Assembly (NCBI RefSeq): GCF_006345805.1
Contig: NW_021832231.1
Location: 496,001-560,000, forward strand
DNA length: 64,000 nucleotides
DNA from: Octopus sinensis
Lineage: Eukaryota
Direction: 5' to 3'
Under the pieces are notes generated by a model. The model was given only the letters and a program-made list of their open reading frames with translations. It did no database searches and had not been told where the DNA came from. Every line of letters starts with the position of its first letter. Positions within the stretch are counted from its first letter, which is position 1. The position numbers were made by a program, and so were the translations under genes. Below, in pieces: positions 7,787 through 54,010 of the stretch.

Positions 7787-9830
7787 TTAAATGGAATTCA
7801 TGTCATTGCATTCATCGTCAGATGTATCAAATGAGATTGTATCAATTTCATTTTCCAGCAAACCTGAGCAAATATTGAGAAAAACAGACCTTCCGCCTTT
7901 TTTAGAATAAATTCCATTTGTTGCATGCTATTGAAATATTCTTCATTGGATTTGGTCGCCTATGTGAGTGTGTTAGCGGGGAATGTCAGTAAATAGGTAA
8001 CACAGCAACTTTCTAGCCTATCGATGTCTTGCTGACACTTATTAAACACCCTATCGAACTCTGCTGCCCTTTCTCGCTCTTAAATTCAAATAAACTCGAC
8101 AAATTATGCCGCATAGCAAACCTGCACATTACCTCATACAAATCTTCTCTCAGTTTCTTGATTGTAGCCTCGTATTCTTCTACCTTGTTATATGCCTACA
8201 ATAAATATGTCAGTTTAATTAATTAAAGTTAGCAACAGGGACCTAGTGGGGATAAGAAAGGAAGGATTGTTAGCTCGGTACCTCAAGAGAGCTAATCTCA
8301 AGAGATTTGAGATTGTTTAAAACAACTTTTAGCTCATTTTCTAACTGGACAACCTAACTACATAAATATAAATAAAACTGCTTTTAATACACCGGGAACC
8401 GCAGCGACAGATTAAGACTAACCTCATTTGAGTGAGCTTCCAATGTTTTTATTCTGAATTCGACGTTCGAATGTTCGTTTGTAGCTATCGTCAGTTGTCT
8501 AAATCAGTTCCAATGAACTGACTTTTTATATTCATTTGCCTGTTCTTCGAATTTATCACAAGATAATTCCAAGTTTTTGTTTGTTCTTAGAACCTAATCG
8601 CCAGTATTAGCCGCATGCACCACCACTGCTACACTTTGCCCACGCAGCGGTTCCCGGACCAAAATACCTCTCAGCCAATTCGAAACGTGCCATTGTCCTC
8701 TCCAAGTCTATTTCAGTGGCCATCAACTTCCTGCTGGTCTATTTATCAGTTACGTGTTATTTTTACTTAGTCGTATTTATGGTCGCTGTCGTCTGCTGTC
8801 CATTTTATATCGGCCAAATGTTTTTCCAGTAGGTAAATTCGCTCTTCGTCTTTGTTGGACTTGTTTTCGAGGATTTTGCGGATTCTAAAACGCATTTATT
8901 GCGGGCAAAGTGTTAGCAGTGGTGGTTGAAAAAGAAAATTAGCTAACACTGTCTAATTCGTCCTTCATTGTTCCCTGTTCATTTTTAATTCTGTTCAATT
9001 CTTTTTTCAAATCATCATTAGCATCTTTCAAGGCCTCATTTTTACGTTCCAGCACTTTCCGTTGGCTTTAATTGTTAGTGGTAGTTGATAGGTCGGGTAA
9101 ATACCGGTCACTTTCGTCGAATTTTTCAATGTAATGATTAAGTTGCTGCGTCTTTTCTTTCAAGTTGGAATCTGTGGCTTCGTTATTATCGTCCATTTCC
9201 AGGTTACCTGAGCAAATATTGAGAAAAACAGACCTTCCGCTATTTCTAGATCTGATTCCATTTTTTTGATCCGATTTAAATATTCTTTATTAGATTTGCC
9301 CGCCTATGTGAGTGTGTTAGCGGAGAATGTCAGTAAATAGGTAACACAGCAACTTTCTAGCTTATCGATGTCTTGCTGACACTTATTAAACACCCTATCG
9401 AACTCTGCTGCCCTTTCTCGCTCTTAAATTCCATTAAACTCGACAAATTATGCCGCATAGCAAACCTGCACATTACCTCATACAAATCTTCCATCAGTTT
9501 CTTGATTGTAGCCTCGTATTCTTCTATTTTGTTATATGCCTACAATAAATATGTCTGTTTAATTAATTAAAGTTCGTAACAGGGGGCTAGTGGGGATTAG
9601 AAAGGAAAGATTGTTAGCTCGGTACCTTAATATAGCTAATCTTAAGTGATCTGAGAATGCTTTCAACATCATTTAGCTTAAATTTCTTTTGAATTCTTCT
9701 CAAATTTTTTTCAGTTTCCAATCTCTTAATTTTTTGTTCCAGCACTTTCTGTTGGTTTTAATTATTAGTGGTAGTTAATAGGTTACCTGTCACTTTCGCA
9801 GAATTTTTCATTGTTTTGCATTCTACAAAA
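7787..9830 (-). pseudogene. Tropomyosin locus, 5'-truncated and internally duplicated, with mutually exclusive exon pairs (partly inactivated or divergent paralog)
   Basis: Peptides RKILENKSNKDEERIYLLEKHL..ADDSDHKYD, SRKLMATEIDLERT, LENELKVVLNNLKSLEIS, QQDIDRLE. Exon sizes match conserved tropomyosin exons: 4a 8948-9065 and 4b 8767-8884 (118 nt), 5b 8668-8738 and 5a 8523-8593 (71 nt), 6a 8423-8498 and 6b 8282-8357 (76 nt), 7 8133-8195 (63 nt). Stops in 4b and 6b. Confidence 0.88.
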
Positions 9831-10936: not shown

Positions 10937-12793
10937 TTAAAAAATTCCATTGGAAAAGTACTGATAACTGTCATACAAACGAGTAGTGATCGAGCGCAAG
11001 GATGAATTAACCATCTCCTCAGTGAACCTCTCCAACTGGTCTTCCTTCCACGAGACATGAAACCTCTCTCTGACCGACTGAATAGAACATGTGCTGTTCT
11101 TAAAACAGGGGAGAGTAGGATTCCCAACTTGCATTATCTCCATCAATGTGATAATCCTCTCCACGTGCTTCCTGGCTGCCACAAGTCCCTGGAAAATGAG
11201 ACTCTTGAAGAATCTGAACATATCCGACTCAAGCCCTCCCATCACCTCCACAAACTCGTCAGTCAACTTGAAGGGCGACACCTCAAACCCCAAATTCCTC
11301 CCAGGAGAAGAGGACATTACAAATGCAAAGTCAATATGCAGCATATGACCCTCTGCGTCCAGAAGAATGTTCCCGTTGTGCCTGTCCTTGACTTGCAGAA
11401 GATAACACACCACACAATAGCCCGCACAACTCCTCACAAAGTTCTCTCTCGCACATAAATATTTCTCAGACGTCTCCAACCCGAACTGTTCCACAAAATA
11501 CTGATTGAGTCGGGGAAATCCTCGCTTTTTGATTTGATGGAGTGAGGCAGTGTCGGGGATATACTCAATCAGTCCCCGAAGTGACCCAGTCACATAAACA
11601 CGAACAGGACGAACCCACAACCTCACATTCTCGACCTCCCAACTCTCCTGGAGTAGTCCAATCACCTCAAATATCACAATCCACCCAACCTGAGATATCA
11701 TCACTTCCTGTCTCAAATCATCCCCCCGTTTGACGATGACTGGCCACAAACTCCAATTGGGCAGGTCTCCGAACAAAGATGTCGCCCGTATTCTCGCCTT
11801 CTTCACATTCCAACACTCGGGGGCCATCGCCGTGGAATCCTTGGAGGAAGACACACTCAGCGGAGTCACGGAATGTTGTAATCGGTGGCGAATAGAGGCG
11901 GCAGACACACGCTGACAGTAGACCGGGTTGGACTGGAGATTGGACTCGGACTTTGAGTAGGTGGAGATGGTAGCCTCTGCTTGACGCTGCAGTGCCTCCA
12001 CGTATACGAGGAAGGGGGCATTGGGCTTGGAATTGAGAATGACTGTCTCATTCTCACAAATATTCAGAATGACGTGTTCTGTGGAAAAGGGAAGCCAAAC
12101 AGGCGCAGGCAGACTCGAATTGAGACATTTGAGTTGGTTGACAAGCACATTCAGTCTTTCATGGAAAAGACAATGCTCACATCCAAGGGCAGTCAACTGC
12201 GAGAGAAATGCAACTTGTGGACGAATCAGGTTGATTTGACAGCGACAGTGTGATGTCCCTCTCCCATATTCGACCTCCCCTCGACCAAATGCGTCCACCC
12301 ACTGAGACTTGGTGACCGAACATCGACAGCCCGAATCAAACCCTCCTCTCTCCCTATCAGAATATGTCCTCCTGTGACTCTTCTTTGCCTTCCATAAATA
12401 TCTCTCCAAAGGACGACATGTCCCGTCAAACCCAACAGAAAGAGCCTTCAACATGAGCGAGCAGGAGACTGCAAATCTGACCGAAGACCGACAACGAGTG
12501 AGGAGATATTCCTCGAGGAACCCCCCATCGTAGTTAGTCACGTGCATGCTCAACAGCTGTGCCAAATACTCCTCACTTTGGGGAAACTCCTGAAGCTTCA
12601 AAGCCAGTTGTTGGCGGACTGATTTTTGTTTGCATTTGAATAAATGGCCGAGGAGATTCACGACGTCCCAGGAGGTGGAGAGGCCCTCAAAGAGCTCCTC
12701 TCCCTTCACTGACTCAGCTTCCCTTGTCGTTTCCGCTGGTAGTTCTGCCAGTGGAGAATCAGTTGGTCTTCTATGTTCTGGGCTACCTCGCAT
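10937..12793 (-). CDS. PI4KB: Phosphatidylinositol 4-kinase III beta
   Basis: VIVKRGDDLRQE, SCAGYCVVCYLLQVKDRHNGNILLD, HIDF, GFEVSPFKLT, YDSYQYFSNGIF. One likely in-frame 24-nt intron at 11666-11689. Confidence 0.95.
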   Translation of the reverse strand: MRGSPEHRRPTDSPLAELPAETTREAESVKGEELFEGLSTSWDVVNLLGHLFKCKQKSVRQQLALKLQEFPQSEEYLAQLLSMHVTNYDGGFLEEYLLTRCRSSVRFAVSCSLMLKALSVGFDGTCRPLERYLWKAKKSHRRTYSDRERGGFDSGCRCSVTKSQWVDAFGRGEVEYGRGTSHCRCQINLIRPQVAFLSQLTALGCEHCLFHERLNVLVNQLKCLNSSLPAPVWLPFSTEHVILNICENETVILNSKPNAPFLVYVEALQRQAEATISTYSKSESNLQSNPVYCQRVSAASIRHRLQHSVTPLSVSSSKDSTAMAPECWNVKKARIRATSLFGDLPNWSLWPVIVKRGDDLRQEVMISQVGWIVIFEVIGLLQESWEVENVRLWVRPVRVYVTGSLRGLIEYIPDTASLHQIKKRGFPRLNQYFVEQFGLETSEKYLCARENFVRSCAGYCVVCYLLQVKDRHNGNILLDAEGHMLHIDFAFVMSSSPGRNLGFEVSPFKLTDEFVEVMGGLESDMFRFFKSLIFQGLVAARKHVERIITLMEIMQVGNPTLPCFKNSTCSIQSVRERFHVSWKEDQLERFTEEMVNSSLRSITTRLYDSYQYFSNGIF

Positions 12794-12868
12794 CGAGCTA
12801 TTCTTTCGCGGAATTGGGGGTCTTGAAGTAAGTCGAGGAAATATAGTGATGTGGGATATCTGGGCTTA

Positions 12869-46855: not shown

Positions 46856-47261
46856 TTTAATTTTAGTCCGATTTTTGATTAAAAAAATTCAAATTATGTC
46901 TGTTTGAATGACTGTGTTCAATCTAATTTTTTTCAGCTTGGTAGCAAAAAGTTTTAGTTTCTTCTTGTTATTGAGGCGTAAAACACTGTGGGCGATAGTT
47001 TTATTTATATATTTTTCGATTTATAACACAAAAGATATACGAATGAAGAAAAAATTTACTTATTTAATTTTTATTTCAAAGAGACTATAACCAATTAACC
47101 AAGACTTAATTCAAAGAAAGAATACTATATGAGAATAACGATTTTCATTAATATTAAGTGATTTTTAAAAATCATTAATGATAAAAAACATAATTGTCCA
47201 CCATATGATGTTGCTTAATTAAAAATATTAGTATAAATAGTAGCAAAAAATAATAAGTAAA

Positions 47262-47812
47262 ATGTTGTATTTTTTAATTCTGTCATTTTTTGTTGCAAAT
47301 TCACCAATATCTGAAAGTAATTAATCACATTTTACTTCAGACTGTTTTGGAGGAAAATGTTATTTTCTTGTGCAAGATAAAATGAATAGAGAAAATGCAC
47401 AAAAATATTGTAAAAAACATAAAGGGTCGCTTGCCAATATACGCTGCCAAAAAATTAGTGATTATATTTCTAGTAAACGCATAAATAAAAATAAAATGCA
47501 GAAACTTTTTTAAATGATACAAAAACACATTTCTATGTTGGAATAAATGATATCAAGGAAGAGGGCAAGTATGTAGATTCATGTGGAAAAAACCAAGTAA
47601 GATTATTTTTATATTCAGAAATTCTTCAATTGGGCTAAATATGAGCCCAATAATCTTGGAAATGAAGACTGCGTTCAAATTTATCATACCACCGGACTTT
47701 GGAATGATATATCGTGCTCAGTGAAATTAACATTTTTGTGTGAAATTTTAGGTTTTCTATTCATATTTATGTTATAGACAAATCAGAAAAAAATCAGCGA
47801 TGTTTAAAATAG
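47262..47812 (+). CDS. Secreted single-domain C-type lectin (EPN/WND, mannose-type)
   Basis: Signal-like MLYFLILSFFVA, CFGGKCYF, AQKYC..HKGSLA, FYVGIND...EG, NWAKYEPNN..NEDC...GLWNDISC...FLCE. Four introns of 22-29 nt; not in the ORF track because of splicing. Confidence 0.9.
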
Positions 47813-48544
47813 GTCAAACATAATAAATAATTCTAAAAATACTAACTTTTTGTTTTGGTCAATACTAACTTTCTACACTACTTTCTTTCAGGTCTATTTC
47901 AAAATCGAAAACAGTTATAGCAAATATGTACATTTCTATAAATATAATAATTTTTTACAAAGATTTTTTTATATAATCCATCATCATTCTTTTTTTGCTT
48001 TTCTGATTCCATAGATTTGACTTAGTTGGAGCACTGTAGTAACTTGACTTTAAAAGTAATTACTTTTGAGAATTAACCACACTGAATAAGATAATTGTCA
48101 ACAGCTTTTTCGTTTTTTCGAAACGTTTGTATAGGGACCTTATGGGTAGGGAATACAGTGTCCTATTCTCCCAGAAACCATAAAACCCTTCACTTCGAGA
48201 CTCATTTTTTCTTTTATATAATTTTGTAAAAAAAGAAATCGGCAATCTGAAACATTTGTAAAGCATAAAATGAAGTAATTTATTATTAATTTTATTCAGC
48301 CAAAATTTTCTTTAAATGTTGAGAAAAATTCAAAATTTCATTTATAAACTTATTTTTTAACCATAAATACGACTGGTTTTTAAACCGTTTTAAACTTTTA
48401 AGAGTTAGTGTCAATAAATACGTTTAAGTTCATGATTGTTAAACACAGAGATGACATTAAGATTGATAACCATAACAAACAATTTTTTGTGACAATTTTT
48501 TAATTAAAAAACAATTCATGAGAAAAAAGAAAATAACTAAAGTA

Positions 48545-50490: not shown

Positions 50491-50888
50491 TTCGTTTATT
50501 ATATTTATGATAGCACATAACTGACAATTAAATTTAGAAACTTGTACATAAAATGTAAACTCAGATCTTCTTTTGGTTTAAATTATATCCAAAAAGAAAA
50601 TAATTTTGTTGTATATGGGAATGAACAAGTAATATTACTTGTATAGTCTGAAATTTTAAATTCTCGATTGGGATAATAATAAAACCAATAATCACAATGT
50701 TAAAACTGCGTTAAAAAATATTAGTCAAAATAATTAAAAATTAACAGCGTCATTAAATATTATTCCACATAAACTACTAGGGTTACATAAATCATTGGTT
50801 AAATTTTTTGACTTTAGACAATTTGATGAATAAAGCACTTTTTATGATGAAATACAAAATTTGTAATTTTTTTTGTAATTTGTAATTA

Positions 50889-51374
50889 CAGTGAATACCC
50901 CCAAATTTGCCATTCTTAAATTCGCCAATTCTTAGATTCGCCTTTTTTTAAAAAAAAATTCTAGTTTCAATGGAAATTCGCCAATTCTGAAATTCGCCAG
51001 AATTTTTGAAAATTTTTAAATAAAAAATACAAAAAATATTGATAAATAATACATTTTTAAAAAAGCATGGCGCAACGTGGGTTTAGTACTATACCATTTC
51101 CCATACTAAATGGGATTAACACCAAACTAAGTGGGAAAAAATCAAAATATAAAGAGACAACAAATGGGACTGAAATATTAATTTAATAAAAAAGCCTAAT
51201 TCTTTGTTAAAATAAAATAATTTTTTTCAATTACGTCAATTTTGGCTATTTTCGAATTATTAAACAGTTCTACTCACATTCAAAAATTATTGATTATATT
51301 CTGAAATTCGCCATTTCTCAAATTCGCCGCAAAAATGACGGAACCAAAAATGGCGAATTTGGGAGTATTCACTG
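50889..51374. mobile_element. Tc1/mariner-pogo type MITE
   Basis: TA target duplication, TIR CAGTGAATACYCCCAAATTYGCCAT, repeated internal AAATTCGCCA motifs, no ORF. Confidence 0.9.
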
Positions 51375-52173
51375 TATTAGCCTGTTCTACACAACGCCAA
51401 GTATACACTTAATTAAAACATAATAAATCACTTTAAACTAAAAGAGATCGGAACACATACTCCTTTAATCGTGCAACTGCACGTGCCTTTTAACCGTGTT
51501 CTTTCCTTTTGTTAAAAAAGATTTCATCAATAAAAGAAACTAAAAGATACTATTGAGTAAGTTCAAGTCATCATACATCCCTCATCAGGCATTCAGAAAT
51601 GACAAAATCTTTCTTATAAATTAAGTTCTAAAGATTTTATCCAAAATATTGCAAAAAAGTAGAGACGACATACCCAATGACACATCTCCGCGCCCCTATA
51701 GAAAAATGGGAAGAACGTCAAGAAAAATAAGGACCCTCCCTAGATAAGCTGAAATCACCTGATTAGTTATATTGTGTTTTTATACGGTGGTCTTGGTTAA
51801 ATAATAATATGGCTGTTATACTTTCTGATCAATATCTGACGATCCAAAAATTTTTTACCTCTTTTTAACCGTAAAAATATAAAAGACAAGTTTTTAAAAC
51901 TCAGGCAAGTTGGTGATCGACATAAAAAGTCAAAAATTCCTCATGAAAGATACGGGCAACATAGATAAAAGGCCAGTGTTCATTAATATATCAGACAGCA
52001 GAACAGTTGACATATGGAAGCGAATAAACCACAGTTTACTGTAATCTTTTTAAATCTACCCACAGTGGTCTTGAAAAGAAAAACATTGGAAAAACTTAGT
52101 CAATAAAAAAGGTGACTTGATGCAAGAGAGATTTCTTAATGTCTCCAAAGAAAAAAACAAAGAAAAAAGTAAA

Positions 52174-52728: not shown

Positions 52729-53309
52729 TACAGCACGCTTAACAAAGAGCACGTTTATATAAATAATTTAGTAGTTTCAATTATTATAATTTTAATAATA
52801 ATCTTAATAAAATAAATTCTAAAATATACCCGTATATTATTCTTTGGAAGAATGAATATATTTATACTGGACAATTTTCCTAATAGGTTTCTCAGAATTT
52901 TAGCAACGTAGACTGCAGTTCTTTTAAGTCTCTCTAGAAAGGTCTGTGATGTCAGTTTAACCCAGATTGGACTGTCTTGTTTGTTTTGGAAAATGTGTTC
53001 CTTCTTAGATTATCTATTAGCGAAAAATCGTATAAAAATGACTCGACTTTTTAAATGATTTCCCCGCACATTAAATCAAGTTATGGCAACTCTCCAGTTT
53101 GATTGGCACTGCTCTTTTGTAAAGAGGATAGATAGAGCCGTCTACTCGCATTTGCATTATCATTCCTGAACAACTCACAAAAAACAGAACTTTTTTTCGC
53201 AATAAAGAAAAACATTTTTGCAGGGTATCTTCAATACATTGCTTATTTCTACCTGCTTAAATAACTTTGCGAATAGAGGAAGTAGCGACCAGATGGAGAA
53301 GATTATAAA

Positions 53310-54010
53310 AAAAATCTTTGTAAAAAAGTATTATATTTATATAAATATGTCTATATTGTTTTTGATTTTGAAATAGACCGAAGAAATTAGTTGATAGAAA
53401 GTTAGTATTGGCTCAAAAGCCAATTGAAGAATGTCTGAATATAAAATAATCTTACTTGTTTTTTCCACATGAATCTACATACTTGCCCTTTCCTTGATAT
53501 CATTTATTCCAACATAGAAATGTGTTTTTGTATCATTTAAAAAAGTTTCTGCATTTTATTTTATTTATGCGTTTACTAGAAATATAATCACTAATTTTTG
53601 GCAGCGTATATTGGCAAGCGACCCTTTATGTTTTTTACAATATTTTTGTGCATTTTCTCTATTCATTTTATCTTGCACAAGAAAATAACATTTTCCTCCA
53701 AAACAGTCTGAAATAAAATGTGATTAATTACTTTCAGATATTGGTGAATTTGCAACGAAAAATGACAGAATTAAAAAATACAACATTTTACTTATTATTT
53801 TTTGCTACTATTTATGCTGATATTTTTTAATTAAGCAACATCATATGGTGGGCAATTATGTTTTTTATCATTAATGTTTTTTAAAAATCACTTAATATTA
53901 ATGAAAGTCGTTATTTTTATATAGTATTATTTCTCTGGAATTTAGTCTTGGTTAATTTTATAGTCTCATTTGAAATAATAATCAAATAAGTTAAATTTTC
54001 TTCATTTTTG
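53310..54010 (-). pseudogene. Inverted, deleted duplicate of the C-type lectin gene with its flanks
   Basis: Highly similar reverse copy of ~47040-47980; 1-nt deletions and loss of ~210 bp covering the WND region and last exon. Confidence 0.88.

Follow-up and report, generated by a model that had tools for sequence, protein, structure and literature searches.

A candidate two-way RNA pairing switch for three exon pairs in a tropomyosin gene with minimal introns

Tropomyosin copies and their source

The window, that is, the whole 64-kb stretch of DNA analysed, carries on its minus strand a tropomyosin gene copy with alternative exons (Table 1). Its identity was assigned from a PF00261 match, from 18 solved-structure matches, nearly all named tropomyosin, and from the exon sizes (134/118/71/76/63/70 nt); exon 4b was aligned to tropomyosin residues 128-164 of the solved structures. 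The exon order 4a-4b-5b-5a-6a-6b, the pair sizes (118/118, 71/71 and 76/76 nt) and the coordinates that an earlier note had read from the letters alone were borne out, and all six exons have AG/GT borders. The frame of this copy is not intact, with the 5' exons missing (in the upstream duplicate, exon 1a and most of exons 2, 1b and 3 are absent), stops in 4b and 6b, a frameshift in canonical exon 8 and AA in place of AG at 9757-9756. Because 4b ends in TAA, 6b starts with TAG and canonical exon 8 has 69 nt, the canonical path is non-coding here, and in all likelihood the copy in the window is a duplicate in decay, to which the pairing elements described below were passed on.

Table 1. Exons, introns and pairing arms of the tropomyosin copy in the window, in transcript order.
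Feature	Position	Strand	Remarks
Rearranged upstream partial duplicate	9985-9105	minus	end of exon 2, 1b/3 chimera, 4a/6b fusion, 7, canonical 8, divergent 8, divergent 9/3 chimera
Exon 4a (divergent)	9065-8948	minus	118 nt, open; parent 3-4a and 4a-5a joints in run X1
Helix A 5' arm, intron 4a/4b	8926-8903 (8901 with extension)	minus	holds GCUAAC 8917-8912
Exon 4b (canonical; tropomyosin residues ~126-164)	8884-8767	minus	118 nt; last codon TAA here, GAG in parent
4b/5b minimal intron	8766-8739	minus	28 nt
Exon 5b (canonical)	8738-8668	minus	71 nt
Central intron	8667-8594	minus	74 nt
Element B (helix B 5' arm), central intron	8657-8643	minus	10 nt after 5b donor
Element A (helix A 3' arm), central intron	8641-8619	minus	
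Exon 5a (divergent)	8593-8523	minus	71 nt; parent 4a-5a joint in RNA
5a/6a minimal intron	8522-8499	minus	24 nt
Exon 6a (divergent)	8498-8423	minus	76 nt; 6a-7 seen in RNA as loose end
Helix B 3' arm, intron 6a/6b	8406-8392	minus	
Exon 6b (canonical)	8357-8282	minus	76 nt; first full codon TAG here, AAG in parent
Exon 7 (shared)	8195-8133	minus	63 nt
Candidate third arm, intron 7/8 canonical	8129-8106	minus	can pair where elements B and A adjoin in the central intron; -20.4 in the window
Exon 8 canonical	8078-8010	minus	69 nt here, 70 in parent; frameshifted
Exon 8 divergent	7959-7890	minus	70 nt; parent joint with exon 7 in RNA
Exon 9 divergent (terminal)	7863-7787	minus	
Exon 9 canonical (terminal)	7703-7621	minus	83 nt

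Some further features of the window were recorded. When the upstream fragments are spliced to the divergent path, an open frame of 291 codons results (9821-7787, minus strand), which is near tropomyosin length and has three chimeric joins; its first acceptor is AA, not AG, and its dN/dS is without sign of selection. The divergent exons 8 and 9 of the window (7787-7959) differ from those of the parent gene (L024:2760-2938) at 17/70 and 31/83 positions, respectively, far above the other exons. Elsewhere, a 642-codon frame without apparent introns (10937-12865, minus strand) is phosphatidylinositol 4-kinase-like by eye, an unusual layout next to its intron-rich neighbours. An inverted duplicate of about 600 nt with 95% identity occupies 47042-47978 and 53301-54006, 6 kb apart, and the second longest inverted match of the window (20 pairs, 489 nt apart) lies at 50887-51376. 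No Rfam family and no tRNA were found in the whole window.

The search for the parent gene that the earlier note had called for led to a full-length copy on contig C8698, with the order 1a-2-1b-3-4a-4b-5b-5a-6a-6b-7-8can-8div-9div-9can (can, canonical; div, divergent), and it is this gene, not the window copy, that is functional. Its canonical frames are open (289 and 247 aa). Exon 4a of the parent is one base short in the assembly; the extra base is present in both contigs of the RNA run X1 that cover the site, and once it is restored, the divergent path too reads through, giving 289 aa with the heptad periodicity kept. Divergent and canonical exons share 13/40, 2/23, 7/26, 3/23 and 4/28 identical residues. 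The assembly search also returned three further long copies (95-97% identity) and some fragments. Of three duplicates analysed, none has an intact canonical path and two have an open divergent path. Selection for the duplicates as paralogues making the divergent form alone was unsupported, and since the crude dN/dS among the copies, based on few changes, is near 1 (0.89-1.57), decay is the simpler reading. One copy (L004, C8702:241794-245717) starts with a 1b/3 chimera as first exon and keeps the divergent path open, with canonical exons 6 and 8 broken; it could encode a short tropomyosin of ~170 aa.

The parent gene likely comes from a dicyemid co-assembled with the octopus, to judge from introns mostly shorter than 30 nt and from a contig set apart from the long-intron host. 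Its small introns measure 24-28 nt, of which those of 24 and 26 nt were confirmed by RNA, in line with the earlier description of a genome of ~25-nt introns; those of a neighbouring gene are about 23-28 nt by eye. In the available text of PMC13644364, PMC6543705 and PMC6736024, animal introns below 30 nt are reported only for myxobolids and dicyemids, and the dicyemid described in the available part of PMC6543705 has a median intron of 27 nt, no true muscle cells, and troponins. A second, long-intron tropomyosin gene lies on a 165-Mb chromosome of the same assembly, which also contains a U2 family distinct from that of the parasite contig. This host gene (C4:64,432,000-64,449,500, minus strand) has four copies of exon 4, two of exon 5, three of exon 6 and two of exon 8, and its exon order resembles that of the parasite gene: divergent 4s, canonical 4, canonical 5, divergent 5, divergent 6s, canonical 6, 7, canonical 8, divergent 8. 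A common ancestry of the divergent exon set is not supported, because the divergent exons of the host mostly score nearer the canonical than the divergent exons of the parasite. In the host gene, a 17-bp helix (-31.9) can join the acceptor region of the first exon 4 with that of the second exon 6. Searches of the assembly with exons 4b and 3 matched nothing beyond the parent with its copies and the tropomyosin of the host, and a representative library gave no usable orthologue, its one weak match being a 936-aa protein at 28% identity. A metagenome scan left 1 locus from 228 candidates, which was rejected as an orthologue, being by translation a bacterial ATPase-like gene.

Pairing elements of the central intron

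The central intron is set apart by its GC content (55% vs 25-44% in the other nine introns) and holds elements A and B, which are complementary to intron 4a/4b upstream and to intron 6a/6b downstream, respectively. Both helices of the earlier note were recovered at the same coordinates: helix A comprises 23 pairs interrupted by a single bulge (-42.5 kcal/mol), and in helix B 14 of 15 positions are paired (-28.2 kcal/mol). They cross, as had been described; that they only abut did not hold, since helix A can be extended by two pairs (G8902.U8642 and C8901-G8643), and G8643 is the last base of element B, an overlap of one base. Against 1000 dinucleotide shuffles of both introns, the 23 Watson-Crick pairs of helix A exceed a shuffle maximum of 14 and were reached by none, by pair count or by whole-intron energy. 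The 14 pairs of helix B exceed a maximum of 12 and were likewise reached by 0/1000 by pair count, and by 12/1000 by whole-intron energy; with local 26-nt windows in the parent, 0/150 shuffles reached helix B. Helix A is the longest inverted match at a spacing of 30-700 nt in the whole 64 kb. At the same spacing, 36 seeds of at least 14 pairs were found, and the three with a GC content of at least 50% are the two halves of helix A and helix B.

Each helix would loop out one alternative unit and draw splice sites near to each other, leaving 46 (helix A) and 45 (helix B) unpaired nt between the joined sites in the parent. The folding program, which models helices A and B one at a time and never together, predicts an ensemble in the parent with helix A at 0.92 and helix B at 0.00; when the 9 nt around CUAAC are held unpaired, the predicted values are 0.00 for helix A and 0.74 for helix B.

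This CUAAC lies in the helix A arm, 29 nt from the 3' splice site of 4b, and is the only such motif reported for intron 4a/4b; the GCUAAC containing it is likely the branch point of 4b. One adenosine of this CUAAC forms the only bulge in helix A. A U2 snRNA gene (Rfam, 153.9 bits) is located on the parent's contig (L084:483-672, C8698), where it reads CAAAGUGUAGUA; element A reads CAAAGUGUAGCA at 8638-8627, a match at 11/12 nt. The helix A 5' arm can form 12 bp with U2, the best such site among 13 introns; its pairing value of -12.3 does not reach the 1% point (-13.1) set by 600 random windows. In 228 kb searched, the exact 11-mer was found only in the four tropomyosin copies. Any sequence that pairs with a branch point will resemble U2 to some extent, which accounts for part of the likeness of element A. 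Both the parasite-contig U2 gene and the host U2 copies have CAAAG immediately before the branch-pairing sequence, one A more than the Rfam consensus.

Other pairings were weighed in the same way. A stretch of intron 3/4a (9085-9073, minus strand), ACUACCACUAACA, resembles the helix A arm of intron 4a/4b; it was rejected as a second selector, as its pairing with element A was reached by 42/150 shuffles, no better than chance, and it may possibly be a shared protein site or a trace of exon duplication. The introns around exon 8 gave no helix above chance (reached by 105 and 122 of 150 shuffles), and a helix looping out canonical exon 8 was dropped, 105/150 shuffles reaching it. The pairing of the candidate third arm in intron 7/8 canonical scores -22.7 in the parent and was reached by 0/120 shuffles, having been chosen among many intron pairs, and this putative arm is a lead only. 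The 86-nt intron 6b/7 (8281-8196, minus strand) has two GCUAAC and one ACUGAC motifs and no strong helix partner; we take these motifs to be candidate STAR/QKI-type sites. In the host gene, no equivalent helix (at least 11 Watson-Crick pairs with at least 4 G/C) was found among 11 intron pairs. The compensatory covariation proposed as a check was not found in the four recent copies, in which the arms vary at 3/77 columns vs 40/516 other intron columns, with zero compensatory changes.

Splice joints and reading frames

The RNA evidence consists of 8 short contigs from one public run (X1, parent share 0.20), in which whole molecules are unphased. X1 was the one run of six considered that contained part of the parent; three others compared with the gene, X2, X5 and X6, gave no contigs, which counts neither for nor against the switch. 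The joints on exon borders are 1a-2, 2-3 (with an 8-nt loose end), 1b-3, 3-4a, 4a-5a, 7-8div and 8div-9div. The 4a-5a joint, which skips 354 nt and so matches the loop of helix A, is present in two contigs with different letters, that is, as two sequence variants, the second of which matches none of the copies compared; the 7-8div joint skips 174 nt. A 13-nt loose end before exon 7 corresponds to the end of 6a, and exon 4b is covered by two 82-nt contigs, both internal to the exon. All joints seen in exons 3-9 thus belong to the divergent path, including the one that helix A predicts, and this dominance agrees with the predicted default fold. Of the joints expected if helix A favours 4a-5a-6a, 3-4a, 4a-5a (in two variants) and 6a-7 were seen; 5a-6a, like the canonical joints, is absent from the 8 contigs. 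No mixed joint was present among the 8 contigs of this run, and the divergent unit seems to run on into exons 8-9.

The reading frames were followed through all 64 subsets of the six exons, of which 12 are open: four single-exon products and all 8 paths that take one exon of each pair. As had been claimed, including both exons of one pair shifts the frame; none of the open subsets does so, and such transcripts meet early stops. The looped blocks measure 189 and 147 nt, both multiples of three; an escape from decay on that account was rejected, as such subsets are not open. Decay can therefore remove double inclusion but not mixed isoforms, and, because all 8 one-of-each paths run open to the normal stop, it cannot enforce coupling, for which a mechanism is needed. 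In the parent, the introns within blocks are the minimal ones (28 nt for 4b/5b, 24 nt for 5a/6a and 26 nt for 8div/9div), whereas those between alternatives measure 39-86 nt.

Proposed switch, alternatives and known systems

Here it is proposed that the central intron pairs either upstream or downstream and that the two crossing helices probably act as an either/or switch, which chooses three exon pairs as a block. Helix A would loop out 4b and 5b, and helix B 5a and 6a. Helix A would be the default, being the stronger and able to close 227 nt ahead of transcription of the last arm of B; it would bury the likely branch point of 4b and bring the 4a donor to the 5a acceptor over the 46 unpaired nt, with element A and U2 snRNP competing for one site. 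If U2 snRNP or another factor reached the branch point first, element B would be free to pair with intron 6a/6b, and helix B would bring the 5b donor to the 6b acceptor over 45 nt. The minimal introns (28 and 24 nt) would glue 4b to 5b and 5a to 6a, preventing 4b-5a and 5a-6b, while the helices would prevent 4a-5b and 5b-6a; transcripts with both exons of a pair, having early stops, would be removed by decay. The helices do not account for how exons 8-9 are chosen, nor for why the canonical path skips 4a and the divergent path 6b.

A bolder extension, which we regard as doubtful, is that element A is an intron-encoded decoy of U2 snRNA, competing with U2 snRNP for the same bulged-adenosine register, and that a race with U2 flips one 40-nt hinge setting exons 4-6 and, via the third arm in intron 7/8, perhaps exons 8-9. 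If this were true, a muscle-less animal of about 30 cells would switch, by RNA alone, from one tropomyosin to another that is unlike it along half of the protein.

Among the alternatives, it is conceivable but unlikely that only helix A matters, silencing the canonical block, with the choice otherwise made by proteins (for example, a STAR/QKI-type factor on CUAAC) and helix B a minor helper or incidental. STAR-type factors bind CUAAC, and CU(A/G)A(C/U) motifs are present in 7/14 parent introns, three of them in intron 6b/7. The dominance of helix A in the predicted ensemble, the exclusively A-type path in the RNA and the apparent coupling of exons 8-9, which have no helix of their own, fit this account as well. 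However, helix B is GC-rich, its 14 pairs were matched by pair count in none of the 1000 shuffles, it is in register with a two-exon block, and the unpaired length that it leaves equals that of helix A. It is quite improbable that both helices form together as a long-range pseudoknot, with the faster splicing event deciding the path: the core arms overlap by at most one base, and the available text of PMC4691838 leaves the same option open for serpent, but with both blocks looped out the product would be 4a-6b, a combination absent from the 12 open subsets, and both helices exceed one helical turn, which would hinder their joint formation. Least probable is that the complementary stretches merely survive from ancient inverted duplications and play no part in splicing today, because, although the region is full of duplicated, rearranged fragments and the four recent copies lack compensatory change, both helices stand in the intact parent, confined to introns in a genome of mostly 23-28-nt introns, and enclose whole exon blocks, and one of them predicts a joint seen in RNA.

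The either/or switch bears on a broader question: what ties together the separate mutually exclusive exon choices of a single gene is little understood, and tropomyosin is the textbook example. The whole candidate fits within about 800 nt, and its arms are conspicuous against minimal introns, so it is testable in one small minigene. If the switch is real, it extends serpent-type pairing from a single exon pair to nested blocks and suggests how regulated splicing persists where introns are too short for steric exclusion. The locus also points to an undescribed divergent tropomyosin isoform of a probable dicyemid.

In vertebrate tropomyosins, the choice of exons 6A/6B of beta-TM is influenced by local structure and that of exons 2/3 of alpha-TM by a steric branch point. 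As in the present gene, exon choice is swayed there by RNA structure or branch-point placement, but on single pairs and by local effects; steric exclusion is, moreover, unlikely where 24-nt introns are spliced. In the available text on bilaterian tropomyosins (PMC3342872), tandem exon duplication is described in which each copy is assigned to one isoform, a likeness in that duplicated exons are tied to one of two isoforms, and that part of the source gives no RNA-structure mechanism. The largely open-access literature searched yielded no report of such a switch in a tropomyosin or a dicyemid.

Competing intronic pairings were put forward in the earlier note as a precedent, and the class stands; the nearest member is the bidirectional, serpent-type pairing and not, as was suggested, the single docking sites. 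According to the available text of PMC6071210, in Dscam1 exon 6, 14-3-3zeta and Mhc, long-range intron-intron pairing likewise joins splice sites and hides exons, but one docking sequence serves several homologous selectors, whereas here two unrelated adjacent arms have one strong partner each. Elements A and B use different sequences, which departs from a single-docking-site model of the Dscam1 exon 6 type. The 3' variable cassettes of PGRP-LC, CG42235 and Pip, as far as the accessible text of PMC6191721 describes them, resemble the tropomyosin case in that competing pairings couple more than one splice decision; they are terminal tandem cassettes with one docking site, in contrast to the nested internal exon pairs found here.

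For exon 4 of Drosophila serpent (srp), a crossing, four-element bidirectional pairing was proven by compensatory mutants (PMC4691838 and PMC6071210, in the parts available). The likeness to that case, so far as those parts describe it, lies in four intronic elements, two of them in the middle intron (one complementary upstream, one downstream), and in two crossing helices that either compete or form a pseudoknot. The tropomyosin arrangement differs from srp, as these sources portray it, in that the srp loop holds one exon of one pair, whereas the tropomyosin loop holds two exons of different pairs, nested, with three choices coupled; in that one tropomyosin arm is the likely branch point and the introns measure 24-86 nt; and in that the arrangement is proposed here from sequence and joints. 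By this analogy, the tropomyosin arrangement probably works like an srp-type switch; it departs from the known systems in that each loop takes in exons from two separate pairs, in that a likely branch point is buried against a U2-like strand, and in that the surrounding introns are minimal.
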